Shown: positions 4,975-44,615 of the stretch, piece by piece
Layout: each line of letters opens with the position of its first letter
Position numbering within the stretch: position 1 is the first letter of the stretch
Assembly (NCBI GenBank): GCA_963674965.2
Contig: CAXXFL010000006.1
Span: 704,001-768,000 of the forward strand
Source of the DNA: a bacterium
GTDB lineage: Bacteria; RBG-13-61-14; DATKZS01
DNA: 64,000 nucleotides
Direction of reading: 5' to 3'
Notes under the pieces: generated by a model
Seen by the model: the letters and a program-made list of their open reading frames with translations, nothing else
Told to the model about the DNA's origin: nothing
Databases searched by the model: none
Program-made: the position numbers and the translations under genes

Positions 4975-5190
4975 TTTTCTTCCTCCTCACGACGTTCAGC
5001 TTATCGCGATTCAACTTCGGTAACGGCGGACCTGATATTATTTTGATCCCAGCGTCTATTTTACCGTCAAACATGGTATAAACGCAAGCAAAAAAGGAAA
5101 TTTTTTTAACGGCCCGGCCGATAAAAACATAATCCGTTAAAACAAAAGACGAGAGTCGGCGCTGAATATTCCAACTTGATCCAGGAAATT

Positions 5191-26494: not shown

Positions 26495-27034
26495 ATGTAT
26501 AGAGAGATGGATGAAGACAGGAAGAAGGCAGGGATTGTTGGGGAGACGGAGGGAGCCCGTAGGGCGACCGGAGTCTCCCCAACCGGGACGGCCGAGCCGG
26601 AGGACACTCCTGCCAAGCGGCCCGAGCGGGTGGGGGCGCCGATCATTCTTCCCGAGCCGGAGGTCCCGGAAAAGCCCGCCCGGCGGCGCTTCACCGCGGC
26701 TTACAAGCTCGCAATCCTCGGGAAGGCCGACGCCTGCTCGGGGCATGGCGAGGTCGGCGCCCTGCTGCGCCGGGAGGGCCTTTATTCGTCGCACCTGACG
26801 GCCTGGCGCAAGCAGCGGGACGAGGGGGCCTTGAAAGCGCTTTCGCCCGTAAAGCGGGGCCGCAAGCCCAAGGCCAAAAACCCGCTGGCCGATGAAGTGG
26901 CCCGCCTCGAGCGCGAGAACCGGAAGCTCCAAAAGCGGCTCGAACAGGCCGAGATGATAATCGACTTCCAAAAAAAAGTTGCCGATCTGCTGGGGATACC
27001 CCTGGCCAAGCCGCCCGGCGAAGAGAGCGAATGA
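26495..27034 (+). CDS. IS3 family transposase OrfA
   Basis: RRRFTAAYKL...LLRREGLYSSHLTAWR HTH plus coiled coil. Confidence 0.88.
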   Translation: MYREMDEDRKKAGIVGETEGARRATGVSPTGTAEPEDTPAKRPERVGAPIILPEPEVPEKPARRRFTAAYKLAILGKADACSGHGEVGALLRREGLYSSHLTAWRKQRDEGALKALSPVKRGRKPKAKNPLADEVARLERENRKLQKRLEQAEMIIDFQKKVADLLGIPLAKPPGEESE

Positions 27035-28085: not shown

Positions 28086-29194
28086 CGAAGGGCGTGCTCA
28101 AGGTGAATCCCGAGGAAGCCAAGATAGTCCAGACCATTTATGAAACCTACAGCAAGCTTCGCTCCTTCAGGATGACGGCCAAGGCGGTCAACGAGATGGG
28201 ATACAGGACCAAGGCCTACCATTCCAGGCGCGGGAATCATCACGGCAACAAGAAATTCAACAAGAACGCGATCGCGCACATCCTCCAGAGCACGGCTTAC
28301 CTCGGAAAGGTATCTCACAACGGCGACATATTCGAGGGCAGGCACGAGGCAATAATCGATGAGAAACTGTGGCAGAACGTGAACGAACACATCGCGGCCA
28401 ACAAGGTGGTCCGCCGGAAGCCGAGGCCCCAGAAGATGCATACCTTCCTGCTGGAAAGCATTGTGAGATGCGGATGGTGTGGAGGCCAGCTTACTCCGAG
28501 CTACTCCGGTGGAAGGAGCAGGCACTACTACTATTACATCTGCACCGGCCTGAACAGAGGGGCCGACGAGTGCAAGATGAAGCGGGTAAGCGCCCCGGCC
28601 TTAGAGGATGCGATAGCCGGAAGGCTTATCGAGATGGGCAAGGACCAGGACCTCCTGAACGAAATCCTAGACGAGGCGAATTGCAATTCCCGGAAGGAGG
28701 TCAAGATACTCCAGGAGCGAAAAGACCTGCAGAGGCGGGCCCTGGCCCCGATAGAACAGGAGATCAAGAACATTGTGAAGTTCATCTCCCAGGGGAAAAA
28801 CATGGCCTCCCTGGGCGCGGAACTCGAGCGCCTGGAGATTCGGAAGAAGGAAATAGAAGGGGAAATCGAGAAGATCGACCTGGAATTCCGGGAGTTGAAA
28901 AACAGAACCATCGACGCGGAGATTATAAGCGAGGGCCTGGAGTTTTTCGAACAGGCATGGGAGGTAGCCGATCCGAAGCAGAAGAAGGACCTCATGAGAC
29001 TGTACGTCCACAAAATCATCTGGACGCCGGAGAAAATAAAAATGGGCCTCTATACAAGGCCCGTGTCTGAAATATCGATTAAATCCAGCAATGTCAACCA
29101 CGATGGGCAAATTGCAGTGGATCGTATTAACTGGCTCCCCGGAAGCAACTCTCTTCATAACGTTCTATTTTGGAGAAAATTTCAAAAAATGTAG
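28086..29194 (+). pseudogene. large serine recombinase lacking its N-terminal catalytic domain
   Basis: VNPEEA, YLG..GRHEAIIDEKLW recombinase domain, CGWCG..YYIC..C zinc ribbon, coiled coil. Begins directly at the IS3 end. Confidence 0.85.
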
Positions 29195-29299
29195 GCGCCG
29201 ATGGGAGTTACACGCGAGTGGGGAAAGAAAGCCGGTGAGAAATAATTTAACGAAGGTTTCCCAACTAAAAGACTAATTGAAGGGGTAAAGGAAATGCCG

Positions 29300-29355
29300 G
29301 AGGTCCATTTCTCCAGGAAAGATTTCGGCGACTCCTTCGTAACTCGTGGCCGCGA
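29300..29355 (+). ncRNA. orphan fragment of an IS110/IS1111 bridge-RNA-like sequence
   Basis: TTTCGGCGACTCCTTCGTAACTCGTGGCCGCGA differs at two positions from TTTCGGCGACTCCTTGGTAACCCGTGGCCGCGA at about 38953-38985. Confidence 0.6.
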
Positions 29356-29940
29356 CCCATTATCGAACCGAACCGTGTACGTCCCCGCGTCCAGCGCCCC
29401 CGCCGCGGACAGCTTGAGAGTGTCGCCCTCCTCGAGCTCGTCGGCCCAGGTGTCGCCGTCGCCCAGGCTGATCTCGCCGAGGGCGCTCTCGGCCAGGAGC
29501 CGGAGCCGCGCCGCGTCGAACTCGGGCGTCGCCGAGTCGCCTTCGCCGGGACCGCAGAGCACGGTGTCGCCGCTCATGACGGTAGTCACGCCGTCGCAGA
29601 GGCCGTCGCCGTCGGTATCGGGACTCAGTGGATTGGTGTAGAAGTAGCCCGAGTTCAGGTACTCCTCGAGGTTGGTCCTCCCGTCGCCGTCGGGGTCATC
29701 GGCCGCGTCGTCCACCAGCGGGTCCAGCCCGGCGATGACCTCCCAATAATCGTCGATCCCGTCCCCATCCGAGTCGGCCAACCTCGGGTCCGTCCCCAGC
29801 CTCGCCTCGATAATCGCCGCCATCCCGTCCCCGTCATAATCCGCCACCGCCTCATCGCACTCCACCACCACCGGATCGAACCCAAGGCTATCGGCATACT
29901 CCACCTCCCACCCGTCCGTGAAGCCGTCAAAGTCAGAATC
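29353..29940 (-). pseudogene. orphan toxin cassette 6, truncated before the Rhs core
   Basis: Homologous to 45.8-46.4 kb of the giant gene; cut after VRFDNGS. Confidence 0.88.
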
Positions 29941-29989
29941 GGCGGAAAGAACAGAGGCAAGTTTTCAAAGAACGTAGTTAAATCTATAT

Positions 29990-30080
29990 CGACAACCAAA
30001 GCATAGGTCATCCCCGGGAAACGATTCTCTATGACCTGCTCGCTATGCTCGCCCATATAGCTGAGCTATATGGGTTACTT
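29990..30080 (-). repeat. structured intergenic repeat (attC/REP-like), intact copy
   Basis: Minus strand TAAC...GTTGTCG with hairpins CCCATATAGC/GCTATATGGG and AGGTCAT/ATGACCT. A second copy lies at about 37602-37684 plus 39267-39275. Confidence 0.65.
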
Positions 30081-30118
30081 ATATTTTAGCCCTTTTGTGG
30101 GTTTCCTGTTACAAAGCA

Positions 30119-30856
30119 TTAATCCTCGTGCTCGGGATACAGCAGTGCTCTCAGTTTATTTTGAATTTCCCTCTCTTCTCCCTCGCTTGACGTGAAAGGA
30201 CGGTCATAGGCTTTGACGAACACTACTCCAGAAGCTTCCACTCTGGTTTCCAGCCAACTAGCGTTAAGCACGTCTTCTTTCTTCTTGCCCGTAATCTCCC
30301 AATATTTATCGCCAAACCACATTACCGAACCCACTTCCTCGAGATATCTGTCGCGAAACGTTCTCCTTCCCGGATTCTGAGACGTGTCTATAATCATCTT
30401 GTCTAATGGGTATGGGAGCCCGTTATGTTTCATGGGCAGATGGTCATAACTGCGGCCAGCGCTATCGTACTGCAACGGGTCATGCGCGTTCTGCCAATAT
30501 TCATAGTTTTCATCATAAACTCTTGCCTGGATAAAAGAATCGAAATCAAGAAAAGGCGCGATCCAGCCATATGATTGCCCAATCTCCTTTATACACTTTT
30601 CGATAAATACGAGAGAAAGGTTTTTATTACCTACATGGCCGTATTCTACTTTGATATTATCAAACTCGATGCCAAAGTGCTGGAGATTTCTTCTTTGGAT
30701 AGACTTCATAATATTCGATAGCTTTATTCTATTCCCATTAATATTGCCCCTTTCGTCAGGATCAATAATGTCCTTATGCGATTCAATAAGCGTTTTCCAA
30801 ATGGCCGTGGGTTTATAAAGCATATAAGGTAATACAATTTCAGCAGATAAATCCAT
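30119..30856 (-). CDS. putative immunity protein (cassette 5), family unrecognised
   Basis: AT-rich ORF starting immediately after the toxin stop codon. Confidence 0.75.
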   Translation of the reverse strand: MDLSAEIVLPYMLYKPTAIWKTLIESHKDIIDPDERGNINGNRIKLSNIMKSIQRRNLQHFGIEFDNIKVEYGHVGNKNLSLVFIEKCIKEIGQSYGWIAPFLDFDSFIQARVYDENYEYWQNAHDPLQYDSAGRSYDHLPMKHNGLPYPLDKMIIDTSQNPGRRTFRDRYLEEVGSVMWFGDKYWEITGKKKEDVLNASWLETRVEASGVVFVKAYDRPFTSSEGEEREIQNKLRALLYPEHED

Positions 30857-32650
30857 TTAAGGGTACTCCTTTATATTGACATGGACATTGTATTTTTCTC
30901 CAAATTTAACCAAATAATCCGCATCGGATGATCCCCCCGGTTGTACTCTTAAATCCAATATCATATTGGCTGGATTATCGTTAACCGACCCTCTTCCAGA
31001 ACCTAGCTGTCTAATATGGCCTTCCATTCCACTCTTCCAGCCTGATCCAGTTGTATCGACAGATTTAACGCTGACAAGATTATTCCCTTTCTGGAAGTCC
31101 ACTAATGGGAAAGTGCCGCCGCCTTCTTTGCCTATATGGTGCCAATCACTATAATCCGTCTTGGCAAGAGCCTCCTCAATTTCTTTTCCACGCTGCAATG
31201 GGTCTTTGCTCCATACTCCTTTGGCCTTTTTGGCTATATCAACTGCCTCATCAGCATGACTTGCAACGTCGTCACCATACCTTGTGACACCGGAAATGAA
31301 AAGTCCAGCTTTTCTTACACCCGCGCCAGACGCGGCAGCTATTCCAACGCAACTCGTCGCCCGCCAGTACCATTGGAGTTCCGTAACATTTATTGCATCG
31401 TAGCCGCTGGTGCATTCGAATACATCGCGCACATCGTTGACACCCGGGACAAACGCCGTTGACAAGTCTGCAAACGTCTTTAATTCTTTTACAACTTCCT
31501 TGACGGAAACGGTCCCGCCAGATAGACTGCTATTCTCAGCCCACTGAGTATATCCAGGGCCGCCATATTGCATCCCATTCGAGTCCTGAAAGGTTATTGG
31601 ATTATTATGAGCGTACTCGTATTGATTAATAAGTCCTGGTATCGGGTCCGTACTAACGAACCTTCCTAAATCCGGGTCATACCAGCGAGCGCCCAGCTTA
31701 TAAAGGCCGACGTCATTATCTTGTCGGCGGCCGACGAAGCCGTGGGTGATGGAGGAGTTGGCGATGGTGAGGGGGTGGGAGGGCGAGCCGGCGAAGTCGG
31801 CGCCGAAGGGGAGATAGGCGCGGCGCCAGACGGTCTCGCCGTCGGAGTTGGTGGCGACCACCGGGGAGTGGAGACCGTAGTGGAGGTAGAGCCGCCGGGA
31901 GATATTGACCGAGGCGGCGCCCGAGTCGAGGAGGCTCGAGCCCGAGTCGTCCACCACGTCAATATCGAAATTTCCCGAGGCCTCGTCCCCGAGGTCGCCC
32001 GTGTCCACAAATATATAAGTCGCGCCCTCGGACACGGCCACCTCGATGGCGTAAACCGAGCCCGACCCATTATCGAAGCGCACCGTGTACGTCCCCGCGT
32101 CCAGCGCCCCCGCCACGGCCAGCTTGAGGGTGTCGCCCTCCTCGAGCTCGTCCGCCCAGGTGTCGCCGTCCCCGAGGGTCAGCTCGCCGATGGCGCTCTC
32201 GGCCAGGAGCCTAAGCCGCGCCGCGTCCAGCTCGGGCGTCGCCGAGTCTCCCTCCCCCGGCCCGCAAAGCTGGGTCGCTCCGTCCATGACGGAGGTCACG
32301 CCGTCGCACAGCCCGTCGCCGTCGGTGTCCGGATTGAATGGGTTGGTATAGAAATACCCCGAGTTCAGGTACTCCTCGAGGTTGGTCCTCCCGTCCCCGT
32401 CGGGGTCCTCGGCCGCGTCGCCCACCAGCGGGTCCAGCCCGGCCACGACCTCCCAATAATCGTCGATCCCGTCCCCATCCGAGTCGGCCAACAGCGGGTT
32501 GGTCCCCAGCCTCGCCTCGATAATGGCCGCCATCCCGTCCCCGTCATAATCCGCCACCGCCGTATCGCACTCCACCACCACCGGATCGAACCCCAAGCTA
32601 TCCGCGTACTCCACCTCCCACCCGTCCGTGAAGCCGTCAAAGTCGGAATC
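30857..32650 (-). CDS. orphan cassette 5: conserved region, Rhs core and CdiA-EC869-like PD-(D/E)xK nuclease toxin (probably silent)
   Basis: NNPITFQDSNG cleavage motif; W....QRG..IE...FPLVDF...VSVKSVDT in the tip. Confidence 0.78.
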   Translation of the reverse strand, partial: DSDFDGFTDGWEVEYADSLGFDPVVVECDTAVADYDGDGMAAIIEARLGTNPLLADSDGDGIDDYWEVVAGLDPLVGDAAEDPDGDGRTNLEEYLNSGYFYTNPFNPDTDGDGLCDGVTSVMDGATQLCGPGEGDSATPELDAARLRLLAESAIGELTLGDGDTWADELEEGDTLKLAVAGALDAGTYTVRFDNGSGSVYAIEVAVSEGATYIFVDTGDLGDEASGNFDIDVVDDSGSSLLDSGAASVNISRRLYLHYGLHSPVVATNSDGETVWRRAYLPFGADFAGSPSHPLTIANSSITHGFVGRRQDNDVGLYKLGARWYDPDLGRFVSTDPIPGLINQYEYAHNNPITFQDSNGMQYGGPGYTQWAENSSLSGGTVSVKEVVKELKTFADLSTAFVPGVNDVRDVFECTSGYDAINVTELQWYWRATSCVGIAAASGAGVRKAGLFISGVTRYGDDVASHADEAVDIAKKAKGVWSKDPLQRGKEIEEALAKTDYSDWHHIGKEGGGTFPLVDFQKGNNLVSVKSVDTTGSGWKSGMEGHIRQLGSGRGSVNDNPANMILDLRVQPGGSSDADYLVKFGEKYNVHVNIKEYP

Positions 32651-32736
32651 GGCGGAAGTAATAATGACAAGTTTTCAAAGAGCGGAGTTACATCTATATC
32701 GACAACTAAAGTGTACAATGCCCGTCTTCGGGTTGC

Positions 32737-33303
32737 CTATTCACAGCCGATAACACTGGCCCTGTATTTATCAAGATATTTAACGTTTGCTTTCTCTAAA
32801 GCATCTTCAAGACATTCTATTCCATTTTTTATTTTATAGTCCACTTCATCTTTTGTAATTGGAATTAACCAATAAAAAGAAACGGCATCATTGTTATTCT
32901 TTAATATTTCAAAGCCTGGACCGTCAAGATAAGGCAATGAAATAAGGCCATATTCACAATTGGAATCAGGCAACCATCCTCTTCCAAAATTAACGGTATG
33001 CCATAGACCAAGACTACTATCAGTTGCGTGAAAATGTACTACTACGGTTAATAGCTCTACGAGGCCTTCATTTCTTTCTGGTGAGTGTATATGTAATTCG
33101 ATCTTTTCCCGATCTTGAAGTGTTGACATTCCACATGTTGCATATGTCCACATATCCCTTTTTATGGTTGGCCTAAACTCAAGGACGCTAAAAAATTGGG
33201 GCAGTTCATGAATTGGCCCTTTATTCCATTTTTTTATTGCTGCCGCATTATTCCAGTTGGTTTCGTAATGCTCTCTAATCAATTCTGTATTATGATATAT
33301 CAT
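32737..33303 (-). CDS. suppressor-of-fused (SUFU) domain immunity protein
   Basis: [15 protein letters not shown] and [10 protein letters not shown]....G...LE motifs; overlaps the toxin stop. Confidence 0.85.
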
Positions 33304-35060
33304 AGTCCATGCTCTTCTTTCTTTTTCTTTGAATAATTGCTCATTTTGCCACCCTGTATATTAGAATCCTTCCTCTTTTGTGTTTGCATCCTTCCTCTGT
33401 CGTTGGCACTTTCTTTCCTCTCAGATTCATTCATCTGATAGCCAGGCTTTTCATCATTCGATAGGTCGCCTTCATAATATCTTTGCACTAAGGGCGGGTC
33501 GTGGTCAACAACTTCATCTGGCTCGGCCCCTAATTCTCTTCTATCACTCTGCTTAGGAGTATTTCCATAATGCTTTCGCCTGTTATATGCCTCAGTTGGC
33601 CCGTCACTTTCGTCAGTTTTTTCATCTACGCCTGGGCTTGGTTCAGGTGAAGGAGACTCGTAATTCGGGTCCACTGGCTCTGAAGGCGGAGCTATATCCT
33701 GGCTAGATTCACCAGCCGCATAAAGTTCAATGAGCAATTCAGCGGCGCCCACCAACGCGGATGAAACGCCAACCCCATAACCAAGCTGATAGCAAGCCCT
33801 CGTGGGGTCGCCTTCTTCTGGCATGTAATAAGTATAATACGCCAGATGTGCATTTTCCGTGGAACGCAATCTGCCGCCTGAAGCTTCATTAACGGCGTCC
33901 GCAGGGACCAGAAACAAAGCATGCGAATACGCGCCTAAACATTCACTATAACCTAAGGCGGCCTCCGCGACTTCTCCTTCCATTCCTGACGCGTCTTGGT
34001 ACACGAACGGGTTGTTATAAGCGTAGGCGTACTGGTTGATGCCCCCGGCAACCGGATCGACGCTGACGAACCTCCCCAAATCCGGGTCGTACCAGCGGGC
34101 GCCGAGTTGATAGAGGCCGACGTCATTGTCGGAGCGGCGACCGACGAAGCCGTGGGTGATGGAGGAGTTGGTTATGGTGAGGGGGTGGGAGGGCGAGCCG
34201 GCGAAGTCGGAGCCGAAGGGGAGGTAGGCGCGGCGCCAGACGGTCTCGCCGTCGGAGTTGGTGGCGACCACCGGGGAGTGGAGACCGTAGTGGAGGTAGA
34301 GCCGCTGGGAGATATTGACCGAGGCGGCGCCCGAGTCGAGGAGGCTCGAGCCCGAGTCGTCCACCACGTCAATGTCGAAATTTCCCGAGGCGTCGTCCCC
34401 GAGGTCTCCCGTGTCCACAAATATATATGTCGCGCCCTCGGACACGTACGCCTCGATGGCGTAAACCGAGCCCGACCCATTATCGAACCGAACCGTGTAC
34501 GTCCCCGCGTCCAGCGCCCCCGCCACGGACAGCTTAAGAGTGTCGCCCTCCTCGAGCTCGTCGGACCAGGTGTCGCCGTCGCCGAGGGTCAGCTCGCCGA
34601 TGGCGCTCTCGGCCAGGAGCCGGAGCCGCGCCGCGTCCAGCTCGGGCGTCGCCGAGTCTCCCTCCCCCGGCCCGCAGAGCACGGTCTCACCGCTCATGAC
34701 TGAGGTCACGCCGTCGCACAGCCCGTCGCCGTCGGTATCGGGATTCAGGGGATTGGTGTAGAAGTAGCCCGAGTTCAGGTATTCCTCGAGGTTGGTCCTC
34801 CCGTCGCCGTCGGGGTCCTCCAAGGAGTCTCCCACCAGCGGGTCCAGCCCGGCGATGACCTCCCAATAATCGTCGATCCCGTCCCCATCCGAGTCGGCCA
34901 ACAGCGGGTCCGTCCCCAGCCTCGCCTCGATAATGGCCGCCATCCCGTCCCCGTCATAATCCGCCACCGCCTCATCGCACTCCACCACCACCGGATCGAA
35001 CCCCAGGCTATCCGCGTACTCCACCTCCCACCCGTCCGTGAAGCCGTCAAAGTCGGAATC
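33300..35060 (-). CDS. orphan cassette 4: conserved region, Rhs core and HNH-like nuclease toxin (probably silent)
   Basis: [11 protein letters not shown]; tip contains VDHDPPL...SNIQGG. Confidence 0.72.
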
Positions 35061-35131
35061 GGCGGAAGTAATAGAGGTTAGTTTTCAAAGAACGGAATTA
35101 CATGCTACGTGTATTGCAAGATACTCCTAAC

Positions 35132-35755
35132 CTACGAAACATTTATAAATATTATATTAGTATATTTTCTAGCTTCGATATATTCTTTAACTTTTTCGGT
35201 ACAAAATATCCATCCAGGAAACTGCGCTATTCTGAATATATCATATGTTGTTGAGTAATTATGATCCAAAACCAAACCGCTTCTCTTTGGGATATAATAA
35301 CGATAACCACAGGTAGAACATGTCTTTTCTAATTTTACATTCGATTTGGCTTCATCCAAAGGAAACCAGGAGTCAACCCACAATTCGCTTAATGTAGGAC
35401 CTTCGTAAGGCAGATATATCCTTTTTTGGGTTCCTTCTCTTGTAGCCTTTGGCATCTTAAGGCGATTGTCTTGGAACATTTTAATTTCTTTAATATCAAA
35501 GCCGCTAAAATGCTTTTTAAGTTCAAGCGCAACGAATTGTTTGGACACCAACTCGAAGCTAATTCCACTCCAAATAAAGTCGCCTATTAAATCCGAACCC
35601 GGTTCCCATTCTATTATTAAAGGAGGTACTCTTATTTGACTCGATCTTGTACATTCAGGACATAGACCTTCACTTTTACTTGGCGTCCAAGTACCTCGTA
35701 TTCCAAATTGCGCATAATTATAGTCTCTTGGAGATAGCATCTGATAAAAAGACAT
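35132..35755 (-). CDS. double-CXXC(G)-like immunity protein
   Basis: CPECT and CSTCG motifs, DIFR...IFCTEK; GAGG RBS; follows the toxin. Confidence 0.7.
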   Translation of the reverse strand: MSFYQMLSPRDYNYAQFGIRGTWTPSKSEGLCPECTRSSQIRVPPLIIEWEPGSDLIGDFIWSGISFELVSKQFVALELKKHFSGFDIKEIKMFQDNRLKMPKATREGTQKRIYLPYEGPTLSELWVDSWFPLDEAKSNVKLEKTCSTCGYRYYIPKRSGLVLDHNYSTTYDIFRIAQFPGWIFCTEKVKEYIEARKYTNIIFINVS

Positions 35756-35767
35756 TTTTTCACCTCA

Positions 35768-37552
35768 CTAATCATCAACGTATTGTATTCCTAATTCCTT
35801 GTTCACTTCTTCTCTAATCCTTAATACATCATCCGCAGTAGGTGTGCGTCCTAGGTCTTCAATTTTTTGTTTTGTTAATTCATTTACAAGACCACCACCT
35901 TTGCCTTTATGTATTCGATTATGCTCATCAATATCAATCTTCCTTCTATTGGGAAAACCTGGTTTTCCTCTTACGTTAGGATTGTTAGCAACGTCAGACG
36001 GTAAATGCTTATCCAATACCTCTTTCGGGGTCTGGTGATGCATATGCGTGCCTTTTGACACACCTTTACTCGCGTCGAGAATCTCATCAGCCGCGTCCAC
36101 CGCGTTAAAGAGCTTTTTATTATTCCTCGACATTATATAATAAAACATGGCGCAATCGTCCAATGGTATTGGAGTCGATTCCGCCGTGGCCATGCCATGA
36201 GCCGCGATATCGTCCATGGGCAAGCCTATTTTTTCACCCGCAGCGTCAACGGCCATTCCCGGCCCAGTTATTGGTATGGTTGCTACTTGGAAAGAAGTGT
36301 CAGTGCCTTGTCTAAATTCTTCCATTCCTTTATCGGATATTGGATCGGCCCCTAATAATTCACCTCCGGCATCAACGCCCTCAATTGTTCCCCTTGCGAT
36401 TATAACCGACAACCCTCCTACGGCGCCAGCGATGACAAAGCCCTGAACCACTGGGCCAATCCAGACCGGGATATTGCCATCCGCGTCCTGGAAAACGAAA
36501 GGGTTGTTATGGCTATATGCGTACTGATTAAGAAGTCCCGGAACGGGGTCTCTACTCACGAACCTCCCCAGGTCCGGGTCGTACCAGCGGGCGCCGAGTT
36601 GGTAGAGGCCGACGTCATTGTCGGAGCGGCGGCCTACGAAGCCGTGGGTGATGGAGGAGTTGGTTATGGTGAGGGGGTGGGAGGGCGAGCCGGCGAAGTC
36701 GGAGCCGAAGGGGAGGTAGGCGCGGCGCCAGACGGTCTCGCCGTCGGAGTTGGTGGCGACCACCGGGGAGTGGAGACCGTAGTGGAGGTAGAGCCGCTGG
36801 GAGATATTGACCGAGGCGGCGCCCGAGTCGAGGAGGCTCGAGCCCGAGTCGTCCACCACGTCAATGTCGAAATTTCCCGAGGCGTCGTCCCCGAGGTCTC
36901 CCGTGTCTATAAAAATATAAGTCGCGCCCTCGGACACGGCCACCTCGATGGCGTAAACCGAGCCCGACCCATTATCGAAGCGCACCGTGTACGTCCCCGC
37001 GTCCAGCGCCTTCGCCACGGACAGCTTGAGAGTGTCGCCCTCCTCGAGCTCGTCGGACCAGGTGTCGCCGTCGCCGAGGGTCAGCTCGCCGATGGCGCTC
37101 TCGGCCAGGAGCCGTAGCCGCGCCGCGTCCAGCTCGGGCGTCGCCGAGTCGCCCTCCCCCGGCCCGCAAAGCTGGGTCGCTCCGTCCATGACGGAGGTCA
37201 CGCCGTCGCACAGCCCGTCGCCGTCGGTGTCCGGATTGAATGGGTTGGTATAGAAATACCCCGAGTTCAGGTACTCCTCGAGGTTGGTCCTCCCGTCCCC
37301 GTCGGGGTCCTCGGCCGCGTCGCCCACCAGCGGGTCCAGCCCGGCCACGACCTCCCAATAATCGTCGATCCCGTCCCCATCCGAGTCGGCCAACAGCGGG
37401 TTGGTCCCCAGCCTCGCCTCGATAATGGCCGCCATCCCGTCCCCGTCGAAATCCGCCACCGCCGTATCGCACTCCACCACCACCGGATCGAACCCAAGGC
37501 TATCCGCGTACTCCACCTCCCACCCGTCCGTGAAGCCGTCAAAGTCGGAATC
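35768..37552 (-). CDS. orphan cassette 3: conserved region, Rhs core and DUF2380/AHH-like HNH toxin (probably silent)
   Basis: NNPFVFQDADG; tip has MHHQTP...EHNRIH..GGG..N. Confidence 0.72.
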   Translation of the reverse strand, partial: DSDFDGFTDGWEVEYADSLGFDPVVVECDTAVADFDGDGMAAIIEARLGTNPLLADSDGDGIDDYWEVVAGLDPLVGDAAEDPDGDGRTNLEEYLNSGYFYTNPFNPDTDGDGLCDGVTSVMDGATQLCGPGEGDSATPELDAARLRLLAESAIGELTLGDGDTWSDELEEGDTLKLSVAKALDAGTYTVRFDNGSGSVYAIEVAVSEGATYIFIDTGDLGDDASGNFDIDVVDDSGSSLLDSGAASVNISQRLYLHYGLHSPVVATNSDGETVWRRAYLPFGSDFAGSPSHPLTITNSSITHGFVGRRSDNDVGLYQLGARWYDPDLGRFVSRDPVPGLLNQYAYSHNNPFVFQDADGNIPVWIGPVVQGFVIAGAVGGLSVIIARGTIEGVDAGGELLGADPISDKGMEEFRQGTDTSFQVATIPITGPGMAVDAAGEKIGLPMDDIAAHGMATAESTPIPLDDCAMFYYIMSRNNKKLFNAVDAADEILDASKGVSKGTHMHHQTPKEVLDKHLPSDVANNPNVRGKPGFPNRRKIDIDEHNRIHKGKGGGLVNELTKQKIEDLGRTPTADDVLRIREEVNKELGIQYVDD

Positions 37553-37786
37553 GGCGGAAGTAATAATGACAAGTTTTCAAAGAACGTAGTTACATCATTA
37601 TCGACAACCTAAGCAGAGGTCATCCTTTGGAAACGATTCTCTATGACCTGCTCGCTATGCTCGCCCACATAGCGGAGCTATGTGTAAACATGAAAGCGGG
37701 CTGTCCTCCAAGACGGTTTGAGGTATAACCGTAAACCAAGGGGTTGCAATGCAGGGCCCCAAATAAATGAAGGGAGGTACAGCCCA

Positions 37787-38872
37787 ATGACAACTTATCT
37801 CGGATTGGACGTGCATTCAAGGAGGACGGTGTTCGTGGCCCAGGAGGAGGACGGAAAAATAATCGCCCGGGGGGACGTGGCTACCGACCGCGCCGGCTTC
37901 GAGGAACTTCTCGGCCGGCTCGGAGGCGAGCTCGGGATCAAGACCGGCCTGGAGAGCGGGGCCCAGTCCTTTTGGGTCAGCGAGCAACTCTCCGAGCTGG
38001 GGTTTCACCCTTACGTGATCAACGCCGCCGAAGTGCGGGCCAAGTCGCTCCGCCCCAACCAGAAGAGCGACGGCCGCGACGCCCTCGAGATTTGCGACGG
38101 TCTGCGCCGCGATCTTTACGTCAGCCGCGTCTACGTGCCCGGCCGGTCCGTTCGCCGCCTGCGGTCCCTGCTCGGCCGCCGCCGTTTTTTCATCCGCCAA
38201 ATGACGTCCCAGGTCAACTCGGCCAAGGCCCTTTTGCGGGGCGAGGGAGTTCGAGTGTCTTTCCGCCTGAACACCGCCTCAGGCTGGAAGCGGGCGCTGG
38301 AGTCCTGCCCGGACTCCTTCCAGCGCGACCTTTTGCGGATGCACTTTCGGACCTGGCGTCAGGTCTCGGAGGAAGTCGCTCGCTTGAACAAGAAAATCGA
38401 AAAGGAGGCGGGCGCCCATTTCGCCGATGCTTATCCCCTGCTCCAGACCGTCCCCGGCGTGGGTCCGGTGACGGCGGCGACCTTTCTTTCCGTTATCGCC
38501 GACGCCGGGCGGTTCGAGCGGAGCGGCCAGGCGGTAAGCTACCTTGGACTCTGTCCGTCCAGTTGGGACAGCGGCGACCGGGTGGTCCACGGCCGTATCA
38601 CCAAGCGCGGGTCCTCGGAGGCCCGCTCGATGCTGGTGGAGGCGGCCCATCACGCGGGCCGTCCCACTCACCCCCTCAACCCGTATTTCGCCCGGGTGGC
38701 GGCGAGGCAGGGTTACAAGAAGGCGGTGGTCTGCGTGGCCCAGCGGCTTTGCCGCGTCATGTGGAGAATGATGTTGGACGGCGAGGAATTCGACGCGGGC
38801 AAGCTCAACGTGACGCCCACGAGCAAGGTCAAGACGAGGAAGTATTACTGGAAGATCAAGGAGGCCGTTTGA
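37787..38872 (+). CDS. IS110 family DEDD recombinase/transposase
   Basis: GLDVH, LESG, KSDGRDA, TVPGVG, SYLGLCP..SG, ITKRG; GGAGG RBS. Confidence 0.95.
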   Translation: MTTYLGLDVHSRRTVFVAQEEDGKIIARGDVATDRAGFEELLGRLGGELGIKTGLESGAQSFWVSEQLSELGFHPYVINAAEVRAKSLRPNQKSDGRDALEICDGLRRDLYVSRVYVPGRSVRRLRSLLGRRRFFIRQMTSQVNSAKALLRGEGVRVSFRLNTASGWKRALESCPDSFQRDLLRMHFRTWRQVSEEVARLNKKIEKEAGAHFADAYPLLQTVPGVGPVTAATFLSVIADAGRFERSGQAVSYLGLCPSSWDSGDRVVHGRITKRGSSEARSMLVEAAHHAGRPTHPLNPYFARVAARQGYKKAVVCVAQRLCRVMWRMMLDGEEFDAGKLNVTPTSKVKTRKYYWKIKEAV

Positions 38873-38914
38873 CTCGTTGAGGTCGCGTCCGTGACTTGGC
38901 CGGCTTGAGGGCGG

Positions 38915-39095
38915 GCCAGGAGGCGCGAGAATCCGTGTCACTCCAAAATAGTTTTCGGCGACTCCTTGGTAACCCGTGGCCGCGAAGGCCTTCTATGTGT
39001 ATGGAGCAACGCCGGGACACCGAACGTATTCGTGAGGCTTACGACCTCTTGACCTCGAATAGATGGTTGGAGGGAGGCACGGACCGGGGGGCGCT
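38915..39095 (+). ncRNA. predicted bridge RNA/seekRNA of the IS1111 element (boundaries approximate)
   Basis: Loop segments GGTAACCCG (38968-76) and CTATGTG (38993-99) match the insertion target; ATAGATG (39059-65) matches the circle junction. Confidence 0.78.
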
Positions 39096-39294
39096 TTTTC
39101 ATCTTTCCGTCATGGGATTGACCCGAAACAATCCCGCCCTCCGTCCCTCGCCCGCTCGGTCCTCCGGTCATGATTCTTTCGGGTAAAGGAGGGTAGACGG
39201 AAAGAAGAAAAAGCTTTGGCAACTGGAGGATGAGACCGTCCAGGGTTGACAATTTGCTTTCATAGATGGGTTACCTGTTGTTATGAGTAACACG

Positions 39295-39909
39295 TCACTT
39301 GTTACTTTTCATTATTTTATCTATATATATTTCTGCGGTTATACCAGATGGTTTCCCTTTAGTTCCAAAGCGCAATTCTTCAATAATCTGTTCCAACTTT
39401 TCAGTTGGGCCAATTTCATTTAGCAGAACCATTAGGTGCATCAATCTTTGAAACTTCGTTAAGCCTGGAGATCTACCCGAAATCCATAGATCTCTTAATG
39501 CGCTGTTACTGGAATATTTTTGCAGCTCTGGAATAATATAATGCCCAGTGCTTGTAAGAATTTCCTCATCGAGACCGGCAAGGTTTGAATTGTCATTGAT
39601 TGTCCACCATGTATCCTTAGGCTGGGGCAATATATGTCCTATACGTTGACGAAAGTGACAATCTTCAATCTTTGGACGTTTAATTGGTTCATTATAAAAT
39701 TGAAAGAGTATTTGTGATGATATCCCAATATTAATCGTAAATATGACTTCATGCTTAGTACTTTTTGTGCTTTTTTGAAAGTTAATGAGTCTCCATATAT
39801 CATCTTTAAAAAGCAAGTAAGTATTGCCATAACGTTTATAACCATGTGCCGATAATAATGGCTTGATCTGCCCCCTCACTAATCTGTTAAATTCAGATGA
39901 AGCTTCCAT
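39295..39909 (-). CDS. DUF4304-like putative immunity protein
   Basis: IKPLL...GYKR.G, INFQKS, FTINIGI, RQRIG motifs; GGAG RBS. Confidence 0.75.
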   Translation of the reverse strand: MEASSEFNRLVRGQIKPLLSAHGYKRYGNTYLLFKDDIWRLINFQKSTKSTKHEVIFTINIGISSQILFQFYNEPIKRPKIEDCHFRQRIGHILPQPKDTWWTINDNSNLAGLDEEILTSTGHYIIPELQKYSSNSALRDLWISGRSPGLTKFQRLMHLMVLLNEIGPTEKLEQIIEELRFGTKGKPSGITAEIYIDKIMKSNK

Positions 39910-40137
39910 TTTGATAAATCTCCTTAATAAGGGTCTATACCTACAATTTATTGACCATTCCTTGCTTTGAATACCACGTCGATTATTTACTTATTATAAG
40001 ATATCGGAAAAATCTTATCGAAAGCTTTGTCATTTTATTCAGGTAACTATTTAAAATTAATGCCGACTAGTAATGATTGCCTCGCAATAACTATTACGCA
40101 AATATTATATTCAATATTATTGAAATTTCGTAACACT

Positions 40138-41877
40138 CTAATTGTCCCGCACGATATTGACAATATATTCTTTAAAAATATCAAGCCATTTATCTTTTGC
40201 TCTCTGCGAAGGTTTATAAGGTGAATTTCCCGTTTTAGTCTCAATTCCACCCAGTACCTCACCGTCTTTGCTGACCTCAATGTCTATACGACGTTTTCCA
40301 AACCAAGTTTTTTTCGTCACCTCTTTTTCGACTTCATACCCATTTTTCTCAATTAATTCAGCTATCTCGTCACGAAAAGCGTCTCCTTTTGCTTTATTTT
40401 TTGATAATTGAGAAGCTTTAGATGATCTCCCCGCATTTGCGGCTGCCATTTCCTCACCGGCGACAGCTTTGGCCCCAAGGCCCATAGCCCCTAGTTCAGC
40501 TATACTGCCAAAAAGCTGAATGTCGTTTTTACACGCGAAGCTCCCGCCGATTCCATAAGCCCAATACTCAGCTGACCCTTGTTCTGATGCCTCGGCCATG
40601 GCCCACCAATCCTCATGGGCGGTACCGGTGAAAAAGTCATGAGTATCTTCCCATGCCAAGATTTCCGACTCCGTGCCCTCTATGTAATACATTGCGGTAT
40701 CAAGTCCCGGCACCTTTACAACCTCATTGATTTTTATCCATGGGCTGAGGGCTTGTTTGACGACTCCGGTGGTAAATTGTTCGAAAAACAAACCGGAAGC
40801 ATCATGATAAACGAACGGATTGTTATTGGCGTAAGAGTACTGGTTCAGAAGGCCAGACACCGGGTCTGTGCTCACGAACCTCCCCAGGTCCGGGTCGTAC
40901 CACCTTGCTCCCAACTGGTAGAGGCCGACGTCGTTGTCTTGTCGGCGGCCGACGAAGCCGTGGGTGATGGAGGAGTTGGCGATGGTGAGGGGGTGGGAGG
41001 GCGAGCCGGCGAAGTCGGCGCCGAAGGGGAGGTAGGCGCGGCGCCAGACGGTCTCGCCGTCGGAGTTGGTGGCGACCACCGGGGAGTGGAGCCCGTAGTG
41101 GAGGTAGAGGCGCTGGGAGATATTGACCGAGGCGGCGCCCGAGTCGAGGAGGCTCGAGCCCGAGTCGTCAACCACGTCAATGTCGTATGAGCCGGAGCCG
41201 GCGTCGTCCCCGAGGTCTCCCGTGTCTATAAATATATAAGTCGCGCCCTCGGACACGGCCACCTCGATGGCGTAAACCGAGCCCGACCCATTATCGAACC
41301 GAACCGTGTACGTCCCCGCGTCCAGCGCCCCCGCCACGGACAGCTTGAGAGTGTCGCCCTCCTCGAGCTCGTCGGACCAGGTGTCGCCGTCGCCGAGGGT
41401 CAACTCGCCGATGGCGCTCTCGGCCAGGAGCCGAAGCCGCGCCGCGTCCAGCTCGGGCGTCGCCGAGTCGCCCTCCCCCGGCCCGCAGAGCACGGTCTCG
41501 CCGCTCATGGCGGAGGTCACGCCGTCGCACAGCCCGTCGCCGTCGGTATCGGGATTCAGGGGATTGGTGTAGAAGTAGCCCGAGTTCTGGTATTCCTCGA
41601 GATTGGTCCTGCCGTCCCCGTCGGGGTCCTCCAAGGAGTCTCCCACCAGCGGGTCCAGCCCGGCGATGACCTCCCAATAATCGTCGATCCCGTCCCCATC
41701 CGAGTCGGCCAACAGCGGGTTGGTCCCCAGCCTCGCCTCGATAATGGCCGCCATCCCGTCGCCGTCATAATCCGCCACCGCCTCATTGCAATTTACCACC
41801 TCCGGGTCGAAGCCAAGGGTGTTGGAGTACTCGACCTCCCACCCGTCCGTGAAGCCGTCAAAGTCGGAATCGATGGA
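40138..41877 (-). CDS. orphan cassette 2: conserved region, Rhs core and PD-(D/E)xK nuclease toxin (probably silent)
   Basis: [11 protein letters not shown]; tip GKRRIDI...IETKTG...SQRAKD. Confidence 0.78.
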
Positions 41878-41932
41878 AAGAACAGAGGCAAGTTTTCAAA
41901 GATCAAATGATCGCGAGCTTTTAATCTAAGGC

Positions 41933-42598
41933 CTACAAATATTTAATCCCTTTATGTCCTATCGCGCTTCCTTCCTCAACGGGTGTGAAACGAAAGTTGG
42001 TTAGCTTGTACTTTTTCGCGCAATCTATAAGAGCATCCGTACAAAAGAACTTAAGATACGATAAATTGGTAGTGAAAAGGTTTTTACCGTCCCAACTGTC
42101 AGGCTTGAATATATAAGGGCATATTTTTGAGTGCTGCAATGTATATGTTTTAGTAATATCGTACAACAATCGTCCACAGCTTTCACAATAGCGAGCATCA
42201 AGAAATCCACTGGCGAGTAAGTCAAGCTCGGCGCCACAGAGTTTTTCTCCATCCACCCAATAGTACTTTGGAGGCTTTGTCCCCTCAAGCTTTTTTGGAT
42301 AAGGCTTTTGGAGTTTAACCCTGTGAAGGGGGATTTCTCCAATGTTTTCTTTCGACCATGCTGCGACGACTTTTTCTGAGATAATTAATAACATTTGGCT
42401 TCCGCAACCTAAAACATCAGCCCACTTGGTACCCTTATCCGGCTCAAAAATAACGGAGATATCACCTGAAGGATAGAATCTCCGGCCTCCGCATTTTTCG
42501 CAGGGGGGCAACATGGTAATTCCTTTCGTTATTTCCGATATCCAGGGGAAGCCTCTTGTATCAAAGGAGTTATCTGAAATGGAGTAAAATTTAATCAT
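41933..42598 (-). CDS. double-CXXCG-like immunity protein
   Basis: CEKCG and CESCG motifs, WDG..LF...FCTD; follows the toxin. Confidence 0.72.
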   Translation of the reverse strand: MIKFYSISDNSFDTRGFPWISEITKGITMLPPCEKCGGRRFYPSGDISVIFEPDKGTKWADVLGCGSQMLLIISEKVVAAWSKENIGEIPLHRVKLQKPYPKKLEGTKPPKYYWVDGEKLCGAELDLLASGFLDARYCESCGRLLYDITKTYTLQHSKICPYIFKPDSWDGKNLFTTNLSYLKFFCTDALIDCAKKYKLTNFRFTPVEEGSAIGHKGIKYL

Positions 42599-42606
42599 AA
42601 CGGTGC

Positions 42607-43932
42607 CTACTGAAAATTTGGATTATTTCTTAAATTATGCATGAAATTTAATACTTCTTTATCAGAAGCTGTTGGGTTACTATCGAAGAATTTTCTCCAT
42701 TCTTTGTTAAAGTCTCTGCTCCATTTTAGATGGTTATTATCTCCTTCTACCCATCGGCCATATTGCGCCTCGTTTATATCATTAATGCCTAATTTATTAA
42801 ATCTATCTTCAAATTCCACCGGCAAGTCATGGTGGGCATGTGGCTTTTTTAAATGTGAGGGCGGGTCACCTAAGTTTTTACGTAGAATTTTTCTTGCCTT
42901 TGTCCCCCTGGCCTTGTTTGCGGCTCTTGCCGCCTTCGCCGCCTTGCTTGTTTTACTAGCCGCGCCACTTAATGCTTTCCCTGATTTGCCAATGCTCTTC
43001 GGGCCGCCGGTCGCGCTGAGCGCAATGTTGGCCGCTAACTCCGAGCCGATTAACGCTTGCTCGTCAGGATCGCTTGCCAGGAAGGCATTATACTGGTTTA
43101 CTGCCCCGTAGTACAACACCTCGGGCTCATCAAGATATAAATAAGCCCCATAACCAATAGTCTCACCCGTGCCATACAGGGTATCGACTGGATGCCGGGC
43201 CATGGTATAGACGCCTTCACCCGTCGAGTAAAACGTCCTTAGCACTCCATGAGCTCCGGCGCTGATACAAGCGGTGGTCTCATTCGAGTTTACCGCGTCC
43301 GCGTACGTCCAAAGAGCGCCGTATATTCCGCTCACGAACTCCGACTCCCGGCCGTCTCCGTCATAATATCGGAATGGATTATTGTTCGCGTAGGCGTACT
43401 GGTTGATGCCCCCGGCAACTGGATCGACGCTGACGAACCTTCCCAGGTCGGGGTCGTACCAGCGGGCGCCGAGTTGGTAGAGGCCGACGTCGTTGTCGGA
43501 GCGGCGGCCTACGAAGCCGTGGGTGATGGAGGAGTTGGCGATGGTGAGGGGGTGGGAGGGCGAGCCGGCGAAGTCGGCGCCGAAGGGGAGGTAGGCGCGG
43601 CGCCAGACGGTCTCGCCGTCGGAGTTGGTGGCGACCACCGGGGAGTGGAGACCATAGTGGAGGTAGAGGCGCTGGGAGATATTGACCGAGGCGGCGCCCG
43701 AGTCGAGGAGGCTCGAGCCCGAGTCGTCAACCACGTCAATGTCGTATGAGCCGGAGCCGGCGTCGTCCCCGAGGTCGCCCGTGTCCACAAAAATATAAGT
43801 CGCGCCCTCGGACACGGCCACCTCGATGGCGTAAACCGCGCCCGACCCATTATCGAAGCGCACCGTGTACGTCCCCGCGTCCAGCGCCCCCGCAACGGCC
43901 AGCTTGAGAGTGTCGCCCTCCTCGAGCTCGTC
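42607..43932 (-). CDS. orphan cassette 1 (shorter homology arm): Rhs core and DUF2380/AHH-like HNH toxin (probably silent)
   Basis: NNPFRYYDGDG; tip AHHDLP..F...GI...H..W...FN.EW..FF..NP.A. Confidence 0.78.
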   Translation of the reverse strand, partial: DELEEGDTLKLAVAGALDAGTYTVRFDNGSGAVYAIEVAVSEGATYIFVDTGDLGDDAGSGSYDIDVVDDSGSSLLDSGAASVNISQRLYLHYGLHSPVVATNSDGETVWRRAYLPFGADFAGSPSHPLTIANSSITHGFVGRRSDNDVGLYQLGARWYDPDLGRFVSVDPVAGGINQYAYANNNPFRYYDGDGRESEFVSGIYGALWTYADAVNSNETTACISAGAHGVLRTFYSTGEGVYTMARHPVDTLYGTGETIGYGAYLYLDEPEVLYYGAVNQYNAFLASDPDEQALIGSELAANIALSATGGPKSIGKSGKALSGAASKTSKAAKAARAANKARGTKARKILRKNLGDPPSHLKKPHAHHDLPVEFEDRFNKLGINDINEAQYGRWVEGDNNHLKWSRDFNKEWRKFFDSNPTASDKEVLNFMHNLRNNPNFQ

Positions 43933-44155
43933 ATCTTGGGTGGCCCACTCTTTCGGAACGAATGAGTGGGTGAGCGGAGCGGACGGGCTTAGCGCCTCGA
44001 GGCATGTTGAAGCTTTCGGCTCCAACTACATGCAGCTAAATCTCAAATTGAATTTTCAAAGAACCGTGCGTAGCTTATATATACCTGTCTCGCGTTGCGA
44101 GAGCCACACGGAAGCATGCTATACCGTATGGCCAACCCGCCGCACTCGCTAAATA

Positions 44156-44593
44156 TCACATTGTTTCATCATCAATTATCGTGAAAACATCCTTTGCTTT
44201 TCCATCTGGGCAACCATATATGTAACACCATGATATATCATTATCAGAATACTCTTCATCATCTCCATCAATAACTTCAGGGTATTCAAAAGCGACACAA
44301 ATAGTGTATATATCATTGTTTTTTGGAGAAATTACCGGGATTAATTCACCTTCGTTATCATAAGAGATTGCATCGGGGTACTGATCTGTATCGTAAAGGA
44401 CAATTTCTTGATTGCATTTATTACATGAAGCGACCACTAATGGTCGGTTATTCTTTTTAACGGAAAAATAATTATTCTTGCAGATACATTTGACTTGATA
44501 AGCAACAAAGTACTCATTTGTCGGTACAGGAAGTATTGAAGCAAAACAACCTATTGGTGTAACGAAGCCCTTTAAATGATCTGGACATCTCAT
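44156..44593 (-). CDS. Cys-rich putative cognate immunity protein of the full-length toxin
   Basis: AT-rich ORF about 22 nt after the toxin stop, AAGGA RBS, CIC and CNKC motifs. Confidence 0.72.
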   Translation of the reverse strand: MRCPDHLKGFVTPIGCFASILPVPTNEYFVAYQVKCICKNNYFSVKKNNRPLVVASCNKCNQEIVLYDTDQYPDAISYDNEGELIPVISPKNNDIYTICVAFEYPEVIDGDDEEYSDNDISWCYIYGCPDGKAKDVFTIIDDETM

Positions 44594-44615
44594 GCTTTAT
44601 TCCTTTCGTGATATA

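Follow-up and report, generated by a model that had tools for sequence, protein, structure and literature searches.

We analyzed a stretch of 64,000 nucleotides (nt), referred to here as the window, that corresponds to C6:704001-768000 in a bacterial genome of 6.5 Mb assembled into 7 contigs, none of which contains N. The window holds a giant gene, called the main gene, that is predicted to encode a lipoprotein of 3255 amino acids (aa), and an array of cassettes downstream of it. Open reading frame (ORF) calling and repeat analysis located six partial copies of the 3' part of the main gene on the same strand. Five of these are start-less cassettes, each consisting of an arm (the copied part), a variable tip and a candidate immunity gene, and the sixth (c6) is an arm fragment. 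Following the main gene and i0, the candidate immunity gene for the main tip, the order is c1-i1, c2-i2, an IS110 insertion sequence (IS), c3-i3, c4-i4, c5-i5 and c6. An initial annotation, made from the letters of the window, had described six toxin cassettes with arms of about 1.1 kb; the array is there, but five copies carry a tip and four arms have that length. The features are listed below in window coordinates.

44616..54383, minus strand: main gene (predicted lipoprotein, 3255 aa), from ORF calling; many TSP3 repeats, Rhs-associated core, 242-aa tip
44616-45344, minus strand: main tip, 242 aa, after NPFVYQDGDG; no family match
45345..46424, minus strand: reference arm, 1080 nt inside the main gene, from the DSDFDG codon (46424) through NPFVYQDGDG (DxxG end at 45345); comparison copy for all cassettes
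44156..44593, minus strand: i0, candidate immunity gene for the main tip, 145 aa; ATG with AAGGA Shine-Dalgarno-like motif; no family
43933..44155, minus strand: short-class leader of c1; boxA-like GGTTCTTTGAAAA at 44053-44064; folding z = -2.51
42607..43932, minus strand: c1; short arm, arm nt 499-1080, 582 nt (43351-43932), and 247-aa tip (42607-43350)
41933..42598, minus strand: i1 candidate, 221 aa; Pfam Imm11, E 0.0011, 18.8 bits, sub-threshold (cut-off 22.1)
41872..41932, minus strand: long-class leader of c2; TGATCTTTGAAAAC at 41893-41904
40138..41871, minus strand: c2; full arm (40792-41871) and 217-aa tip (40138-40791)
39295..39909, minus strand: i2 candidate, 204 aa; Pfam DUF4304, 67.5 bits (cut-off 23.2)
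37678..39274, plus strand: IS110-family insertion sequence in the c3 leader; transposase 37718-38872, Pfam DEDD_Tnp_IS110 and Transposase_20
37553..37677, minus strand: long-class leader of c3; CGTTCTTTGAAAAC at 37574-37585
35768..37552, minus strand: c3; full arm (36476-37552) and 235-aa tip (35768-36475)
35132..35755, minus strand: i3 candidate, 207 aa; Pfam Imm11, 22.6 bits (cut-off 22.1); weak NCBIfam SitI6 double-CXXCG match
35061..35131, minus strand: long-class leader of c4; CGTTCTTTGAAAAC at 35082-35093
33300..35060, minus strand: c4; full arm (33984-35060) and 227-aa tip (33300-33983)
32737..33303, minus strand: i4 candidate, 188 aa; Pfam SUFU, 55.2 bits (cut-off 25)
32651..32736, minus strand: long-class leader of c5; CGCTCTTTGAAAAC at 32672-32683
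30857..32650, minus strand: c5; full arm (31574-32650) and 238-aa tip (30857-31573)
30119..30856, minus strand: i5 candidate, 245 aa; no family; ATG with AAGGAG motif; begins directly after the c5 stop
29941..30118, minus strand: long-class leader of c6 (full form of about 170 nt, with dispersed hairpin repeat); CGTTCTTTGAAAAC at 29962-29973
29353..29940, minus strand: c6, arm fragment only (arm nt 1-588, 588 nt; no tip, no immunity gene), located by blastn
29128..29352, minus strand: terminal flank, shared at 99% identity by the ends of the genome's three arrays; resembles the IS110 element over 45 nt

The N-terminus of the main protein (...VVIVGC/GAS) resembles the lipobox of a lipoprotein signal. 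Pfam finds bacterial TSP3 repeats in the protein and nothing else, and the NCBIfam models for the TSP3 lipoproteins CglD and MtsD match sub-threshold (CglD 311 bits, cut-off 400). The Rhs-associated core model TIGR03696 (Rhs_assc_core) matches aa 2933-3013 with 63.1 bits (cut-off 32.5). The genome is also rich in other giant TSP3-repeat open frames (2600-4900 aa; C4, C5, C6, C7) that lack this arm.

The c2-c5 arms cover 1070-1079 of the 1080 reference nt at 91.6-94.5% identity (blastn), and the blastn match of c1 spans arm nt 499-1079 (43352-43932). Five of the six copies had been reported to share a start, and c2-c6 all begin GAT TC(C/T) GAC TTT GAC GGC at the main-gene codon of window position 46424; homology runs a further 2-3 codons upstream, reading (L/V)S(I/A)D in the cassettes and VSID in the main gene. 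The early truncation of c6 is equally real, only arm nt 1-588 being present. At the other end, divergence had been placed just after DxxG. This holds for protein, in which homology stops at NPxxxxDxxG, but not for nucleotides, the identity of which drops about 80 nt sooner; the last 120-nt arm window has 28-33 mismatches between cassettes with unlike tips. All 17 tips of the genome carry NPxxxxDxxG. Tips and immunity genes are AT-rich as first described, with a guanine-plus-cytosine fraction of 0.45-0.48 and 0.345-0.42, respectively, against 0.64-0.655 in the arms. The arm has the unusual composition originally noted: a TSP3_bac repeat (Pfam), a stretch of 115-130 aa without a family, and then the end of the Rhs core, matched by TIGR03696 in 5/5 tip-bearing cassettes (62-68.4 bits, cut-off 32.5). 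For the middle domain Pfam gave no family (DUF4397 E 0.12, PPC E 1.2), and AlphaFold2 without an alignment gave a model of the arm too poor to use (predicted local distance difference test, pLDDT, 41). Rfam had 0 matches at E ≤ 0.1 in window positions 28500-47000, and a scan for promoters and terminators was uninformative (22 and 18 sites, compared to 15.5 ± 4.3 and 18.9 ± 4.4 in shuffles).

The tips of the main gene and c1-c5 are 217-247 aa long. Small ORFs begin 0-22 nt after five of these six tips and 228 nt after the c2 tip, and three of them match immunity families above cut-off: i2 (DUF4304), i4 (SUFU) and i3 (Imm11). Among the tips themselves, c2 weakly matches REase_MTES_1575 (E 0.0014) and c5 the pre-toxin domain PT-TG (22.2 bits, just under the cut-off of 23.5). 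The genome has two sister arrays, described below, and the main tip of the larger one (locus B, on C2) is an HNH nuclease (32.7 bits) followed by a DUF4265 gene. One orphan tip of locus B is colicin-DNase/LHH-like, sub-threshold. Immunity candidates above cut-offs at locus B are DUF4265 (107 bits), SUFU (55.2), DUF4304 (67.6) and T6SS_Tdi1_C (40.6), with 5 of the 10 immunity candidates and 5 of the 8 tips scanned there lacking a family. We predicted the complex of main-tip residues 100-242 with i0. It scored 0.63 (runs 0.73, 0.58, 0.63), and the best control 0.01; 51 of 78 solved complexes attain this mark, compared to 2 of 108 mismatched pairs. The runs had at least 79% of contacts in common, with a partner pLDDT of at least 85, and the model thus supports binding of the main tip to i0. 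A restriction-endonuclease fold for the C-terminal domain of the main tip was considered and set aside: the ESM Atlas matches (0.85-0.86) are leads only, and the best matches are unnamed clusters (0.92-0.93). AlphaFold2 without an alignment reached a pLDDT of 48 on this domain, too poor to use.

Tips recur across the genome, as whole tips and in part. Cassettes without a start are called orphans, and those of locus B carry the prefix B_o. The c1 and B_o2 tips are 100% identical, c2 and B_o7 89%, and B_o3 and B_o5 97%. Other tips have just an N-terminal sub-domain of 110-140 aa in common: main, B_o9 and B_o4; c4 and the locus B main gene (98% over 108 aa); c5 and B_o8. At C2:80064-81233 the locus B main gene is followed by two immunity-type genes, DUF4265 and then a SUFU-like homologue of i4. 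The toxin domain matching this SUFU-like gene is missing there, and the c4 and locus B main tips share the N-terminal 108 aa only. This arrangement shows that a toxin sub-domain has been exchanged within a tip.

We next consider how these frames could be translated. As had been stated initially, an in-frame TGA lies just upstream, 9 codons before GAT in all five long-arm cassettes of the window, there is no ATG between it and the arm, and the cassettes have no signal peptide; an in-frame stop 9 codons before the arm is found in 12/12 long-arm orphan copies of the genome. By comparison, i0, i2, i3 and i5 have an ATG with an AAGGAG-like site 6-11 nt upstream, the sites of i1 and i4 being weaker. 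Since the orphan arms are start-less, the toxins would not be made from the orphan position and are presumably silent there, and the immunity genes are probably expressed from their own ATG and ribosome-binding sites. Orphans of contact-dependent inhibition (CDI) systems are described in PMC3150448 as having no initiation signals, as co-transcribed with the main gene, and as yielding orphan immunity protein; the weak or absent toxin starts and good immunity starts seen here match that pattern.

The orphan frames are nonetheless preserved. All 12 tip-bearing orphan frames of the genome (9 long-arm plus 5 short-arm, minus 2 truncated copies) are open through arm and tip, over about 430-615 codons, at 5-9% divergence. 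The ratio of nonsynonymous to synonymous substitution rates (dN/dS) in the arms is 0.18-0.32, with a median of 0.23 (55 pairs, orphan-orphan pairs included). Together these results indicate that the sequences evolve, or arrive, as translated protein. Purifying selection on the arms would also be expected if the cassettes were stand-alone effectors, translated from the GTG at VEYADS and exported independently of a signal, for instance by this genome's type VI secretion system (T6SS). ORFs of 553-585 aa do exist, public annotation calls a 574-aa protein (P0003), and genes for a T6SS sheath and for PAAR are present in the genome. However, the GTG, present in 9 of the 11 full arms of the genome, is GTC in c2 and in one main gene, and GGGAG directly abuts it with a spacer of 0. 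The short-arm cassettes lack the VEYADS region entirely, yet keep intact tips. No T6SS link was found at the locus: VipB is on contig C7 and the PAAR gene at C6:931.9k, neither of them near the array. Moreover, the same sequence is an internal part of the 3255-aa lipoprotein. We therefore regard stand-alone translation as very unlikely.

The initial description had covered a single array, but the genome holds two more. A blastn search with the 1080-nt arm gave 23 matches at E ≤ 1e-20, which chance does not explain: 7 in the window, 11 at C2:78309-101882, 2 at C6:879350-883183 and 3 on C1. Locus B (C2:78309-101882) comprises a 3339-aa open frame and 10 cassettes; the third locus (C6:879350-883183) comprises a 3356-aa open frame, with an arm 83% identical, and a 1-588 fragment. 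The genome thus has three giant genes with 6, 10 and 1 cassettes, and 17 tips in all. Each of the three arrays closes with an arm fragment that stops at nt 588, and the ~230 nt behind it are common to all three (99% identity). In the window, the array end adjoins an rve-type integrase ORF (27031..28047, plus strand) and a serine-recombinase fragment (28094..29194, plus strand) that has Recombinase and zinc-ribbon domains and is missing the catalytic domain; the other two arrays end beside different genes.

The cassettes also have non-coding leaders in common. Twelve long-arm orphans, compared with the internally deleted copy B_o2 left out, share upstream sequence that is missing from the main genes, extending over 45 nt in all and to ~170 nt in seven. 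The middle 45 nt of this long leader is a hairpin repeat with ~25 other sites in the genome, and the last ~85 nt occurs beside arms only. Short-arm cassettes (c1, four in locus B and two strays) have a different common leader of ~190 nt, joined to an arm cut at nt 499, that folds better than shuffles (z = -2.51, 1/200). One junction and one non-coding leader in all long-arm cassettes indicate that they are copies of one founder cassette. The cassettes are, on this pattern, evidently copies of one another and not independent copies of the giant gene, from which the shared leader is missing; the two fixed leader/arm classes would fit the spread of two founder cassettes by unequal exchange, with tips replaced later. 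The IS110-family element, with 4 full copies in the genome, lies in the hairpin-repeat part of the leader in the window, and ~60 nt of the same IS end sit at the equivalent leader site upstream of orphan B_o5 (C2), which suggests site-specific targeting of the hairpin repeat. At C5:413591 there is a lone short-class leader with the motif discussed below and hairpins, and no arm by blastn.

The arms are demonstrably recombinant. In an alignment of 11 full arms, the nearest neighbor switches along every arm, and 120-nt windows with 0 mismatches are found to differing partners: main genes, orphans of the same array and orphans of the other array. The pairwise homoplasy index (PHI) was 0.468, compared to 0.615 ± 0.010 in permuted alignments, with 0/1000 at or below the observed value. 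Larger blocks join arms to tips. B_o9, the last orphan of locus B, matches the window's main arm and the 369 nt of tip next to it at 96.8% identity, and the locus B main gene matches the c4 arm and 341 nt of the c4 tip at 96.3%. Over a block of 3131 nt, which takes in the c1 arm and tip, i1, the leader and all of the c2 arm, the window and locus B are 96.4% identical; the tips differ beyond it. The tip common to c1 and B_o2 is on a short arm in the window and on a long arm in locus B. One and the same arm-tip sequence thus occurs as "main" in one locus and as "orphan" in the other.

We weighed against these data the idea of an immunity island with fossil toxins, in which cassettes are kept for immunity against neighbors' toxins and the arms and tips are remnants of tandem duplication that are never re-expressed. 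Such an island would account for immunity genes with good starts and toxins with none, and locus B does have the SUFU immunity gene without its own toxin, directly behind another immunity gene; Poole et al. raise the same reading for CDI orphans (PMC3150448). Useless remnants should decay, however, and here 12/12 tip-bearing orphan frames remain open despite 5-9% divergence. The arm dN/dS of 0.23 includes orphan-orphan pairs, and the recent arm-plus-tip blocks are common to main genes and orphans. Overall, we consider this explanation unlikely.

Seven arm copies of 91-95% identity within 17 kb could in principle reflect a repeat-induced misassembly of fewer real cassettes, and no arm is bridged by short-read contigs. 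Such contigs, from two runs (X1 and X2) of one sample, nevertheless contain eight unique tip/immunity segments with 0 differences, so that each cassette's own tip and immunity sequence is found in an independent assembly. Contig depth was ~13-20 for unique segments, ~34 for two doubled segments (i4; the c1 tip plus i1) and 54 for the IS. These depths fit the assembled copy numbers and speak against inflation of the array. With differences of 5-9%, the arms are distinct enough for long reads to be placed, and the genome is in 7 contigs without N. An assembly artifact is thus the least probable of the explanations considered, and by a wide measure improbable. Seven contig joints were examined as evidence of order or switching and were not trusted, their sides being 20-30 nt.

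Relatives of the carrier are few. A search of representative proteins at E ≤ 0.001 returned 60703 matches, nearly all to TSP3 repeats; outside this genome, the arm was present in just two proteins, P0011 (46% identity) and P0025 (50% identity). Both have the architecture of the main protein: lipoprotein, TSP3, middle domain and Rhs core. The carrier family thus exists outside this genome.

Collectively, these data make it likely that the window contains a polymorphic-toxin locus with a recombining store of start-less tip/immunity cassettes. The initial proposal that the arms serve as recombination substrate is borne out by the placement of the cassettes downstream in the same orientation, by their immunity-family neighbors and by the recombinant arms. 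In our model, the giant protein would be a Sec-exported, lipid-anchored surface protein with TSP3 calcium repeats. The final ~240 residues, past NPxxxxDxxG, would act as a toxin, in most cases nuclease-like, that can be exchanged and that the product of the adjoining downstream gene neutralizes. Five further tip/immunity pairs would be stored downstream, each tip joined to the final 1080 nt (582 nt in c1) of the conserved part, copied without a start. Through homology at the arm, RecA-type recombination and gene conversion would act between main gene and cassettes, inside the array and also with its two sister arrays. In this way, a stored tip and its immunity gene could be loaded onto the giant gene, and cassettes could be duplicated, shuffled or replaced. 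We infer both the ongoing switching of tips and the delivery route.

Several observations weigh against this model. The sharing between main genes and orphans shows past exchange between paralogous loci, 3-4% divergence ago, and not present exchange. No switched allele was seen in the short-read contigs, which end in arms and bridge none. A close relative with other tips on the orthologous gene was not found in 40 related genomes, in the 12 other genomes of the phylum in the collection or in two contig sets (genome_contigs, 6 loci; metagenome_contigs, 8 loci), all of which gave partial TSP3 or Rhs-core matches only; the carrier family likewise did not turn up in those 12 genomes or in the contig sets. 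An IS110 copy breaks the array between i2 and c3. Four of the six window tips lack even a weak family match, phmmer with four of the six against the PDB found nothing under E 0.1, and two of the six immunity candidates (i0 and i5) have no family. The 3255-aa main protein has no YD/RHS repeats (Pfam RHS_repeat, TIGR01643) and hence no YD-repeat shell, and the model does not appear to explain how a tip would be released or delivered from the end of an Rhs core without one.

YD repeats at the locus are confined to a separate upstream ORF of 1505 aa (55258..59775, minus strand), which is followed by an overlapping HEAT-repeat ORF of 313 aa (54407..55348). The same two ORFs stand ahead of all three giant genes, and E. 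coli K-12 has a similar order, with the HEAT-repeat gene yibA behind rhsA. The two ORFs may constitute an Rhs-type toxin/immunity pair in their own right, or they may be partnered with the giant protein.

The leaders contain a motif that bears on how the stored immunity genes might be transcribed. Both leader classes, otherwise dissimilar, hold G-N-TCTTTGAAA(A). The longest invariant block is G.TCTTTGAAAACT in 12 unique long leaders and CACGGTTCTTTGAAAA in 7 unique short leaders; the leader of c2, for example, reads UGAUCUUUGAAA. TCTTTGAAAA occurs 48 times in the genome, compared to 3.9 expected from base composition. The genome has 42 G-N-TCTTTGAAA sites, with 22 in cassette leaders and 3 in the single ribosomal RNA (rRNA) operon; a further 5 are copies within a gene of an insertion sequence, 4 belong to a different repeat family and 8 stand alone. 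In the rRNA operon, the genes of which, like those for transfer RNA (tRNA), were located by Rfam, two sites precede the 16S gene, by 106 and 256 nt, and one is between 16S and the first spacer tRNA; boxA classically occupies such positions. The leader motif fits the E. coli boxA form UGCUCUUUAACA and the B. subtilis rrn element AUGAUCUUUGAAA, which binds NusB (PMC13753749). In the window, all sites are on the cassette strand ahead of an arm, those of c1, c2, c4, c5 and c6 being 31-148 nt past the immunity stop and that of c3 beyond the IS element. The in-frame TGA before the arm is part of the motif (TCTT-TGA-AAA). The genome has rho (702 bits) and nusB (143.8 bits) genes, and boxA shields untranslated rRNA and clustered regularly interspaced short palindromic repeat (CRISPR) transcripts from Rho (Stringer et al. 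2020, as cited in PMC7862264 and PMC13753749).

These observations raise a possibility that we put forward tentatively and consider rather less probable than the store itself. Each silent cassette would have its own boxA-type antitermination site containing the stop that closes the orphan frame. The motif would load a NusB/NusE antitermination complex, and the leaders would re-arm RNA polymerase ahead of each 1.3-1.8 kb of untranslated arm and tip. Transcription from upstream could then continue through arm and tip, free of Rho-dependent polarity, as far as the following immunity gene, so that the array is transcribed end to end, with immunity genes expressed and toxins untranslated. The three arrays, on a lipoprotein without an Rhs shell, would form one recombining tip library. 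This proposal has its own difficulties. Because the leaders form two homologous classes, the 22 leader sites count as roughly two independent observations, to which the rRNA operon adds. The leader motif has one mismatch to GYTCTTTAANA, a consensus that is gamma-proteobacterial (PMC5725501). In rhsA-yibA-yibJ of E. coli K-12, one Rhs orphan locus, the boxA consensus has no exact match; there are 3 one-mismatch matches, compared to 1.08 ± 0.92 in shuffles, and 0 in the orphan spacers.

A crude scan found no CRISPR arrays in the genome, and a literature search linking boxA with orphan toxin arrays gave nothing relevant among the matches listed. One motif match outside the genome (L028), the sole one among the other loci examined, overlaps a normal gene start and was taken as coincidence. 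A four-copy intergenic repeat (...GCCCGCC..GCTCTTTGAAAATCGAATACCGAGG...) carries a boxA-like motif at C1:1078860, C3:165184, C5:227243 and C6:6706, and one copy of it precedes tRNA-Gly and tRNA-Cys by ~930 nt. Directly upstream of the only rRNA operon, and co-oriented with it, there are two cassette fragments that have leaders (arm nt 1-205 and 1-953; C1:906000-915000, 4809-6443); the arm of the C1 fragment ends 548 nt before the 16S gene, with the rrn boxA between.

Stores of orphan toxin tips are thought to let bacteria switch weapons and hoard antidotes. To our knowledge, they have been studied almost solely in Proteobacteria, on Rhs, CdiA and MafB carriers. Here the same store logic is found on a very large surface lipoprotein, in a phylum represented by 13 genomes in the searched collection. 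A boxA-like site that works as proposed would explain how antidote genes behind kilobases of untranslated toxin DNA are transcribed, and the means by which orphan immunity genes evade Rho polarity would be built into the array; a protein-gene array would then join the short list of boxA targets (rRNA, suhB-type genes and CRISPR arrays).

In Neisseria MafB-CT loci, a full-length toxin gene is followed by cassettes that encode alternative C-terminal toxins along with immunity genes, although the protein family and secretion signal differ from those of the carrier here. In the myxobacterial CglD/MtsD and SitA/SitI systems, a lipoprotein signal and many bacterial TSP3 repeats are found as here, all matches being sub-threshold, and i3 weakly matches the SitI6 double-CXXCG family; genes for outer-membrane exchange were not found, although no search aimed at them was made, and the Rhs core boundary is, as far as we know, not a SitA feature. 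Rhs orphan modules, as described for Salmonella LT2, Dickeya and E. coli (PMC3967940, PMC3150448), are closer. As in the window, a start-less 3' fragment lies downstream in the same orientation, and homology ends at a core boundary motif followed by a variable tip and its cognate immunity gene. In Salmonella Typhimurium LT2, the rhs-CT orphan has a 522-bp arm of 95% identity, enough for fusion of main gene and orphan by homologous recombination, which is the activating step shown there (PMC3967940); the arms here are 1080 nt at 91-96%. Unlike Rhs, the carrier here is a 3255-aa TSP3 lipoprotein with only a 76-residue Rhs-associated core and no YD shell or PAAR/VgrG link, and the arm is mostly non-Rhs, with up to 10 cassettes per array, three exchanging arrays, a uniform junction and a common leader.

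CDI offers the nearest parallel in layout. According to PMC3150448, orphan cdiA-CT/cdiI pairs form long ordered arrays (11 pairs in E. coli EC869) and IS elements lie inside the arrays, both as in the window; most CDI orphans are without initiation signals, as the sequence suggests for the cassettes here. Modules are shared there between main and orphan positions across strains, and here across loci of one genome. The CDI boundary motif is VENN and the carrier a two-partner-secretion filament, unlike here, and the upstream homology retained varies per orphan, whereas the cassettes here are cut at the same nucleotide in two fixed classes. In rRNA and CRISPR boxA/Nus systems (PMC13753749, PMC5725501), the motif precedes long untranslated transcribed DNA, as it does here, but in this genome it recurs before each unit of a protein-gene array, in a role proposed from its sequence. 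Functionally, the locus is an orphan-module array of the Rhs/CDI/Maf kind and not a canonical Rhs protein. What it adds to these systems is the carrier, the mostly non-Rhs arm, the uniform cassette unit and the three-array exchange network, and possibly the boxA-guarded leaders as a further new element.

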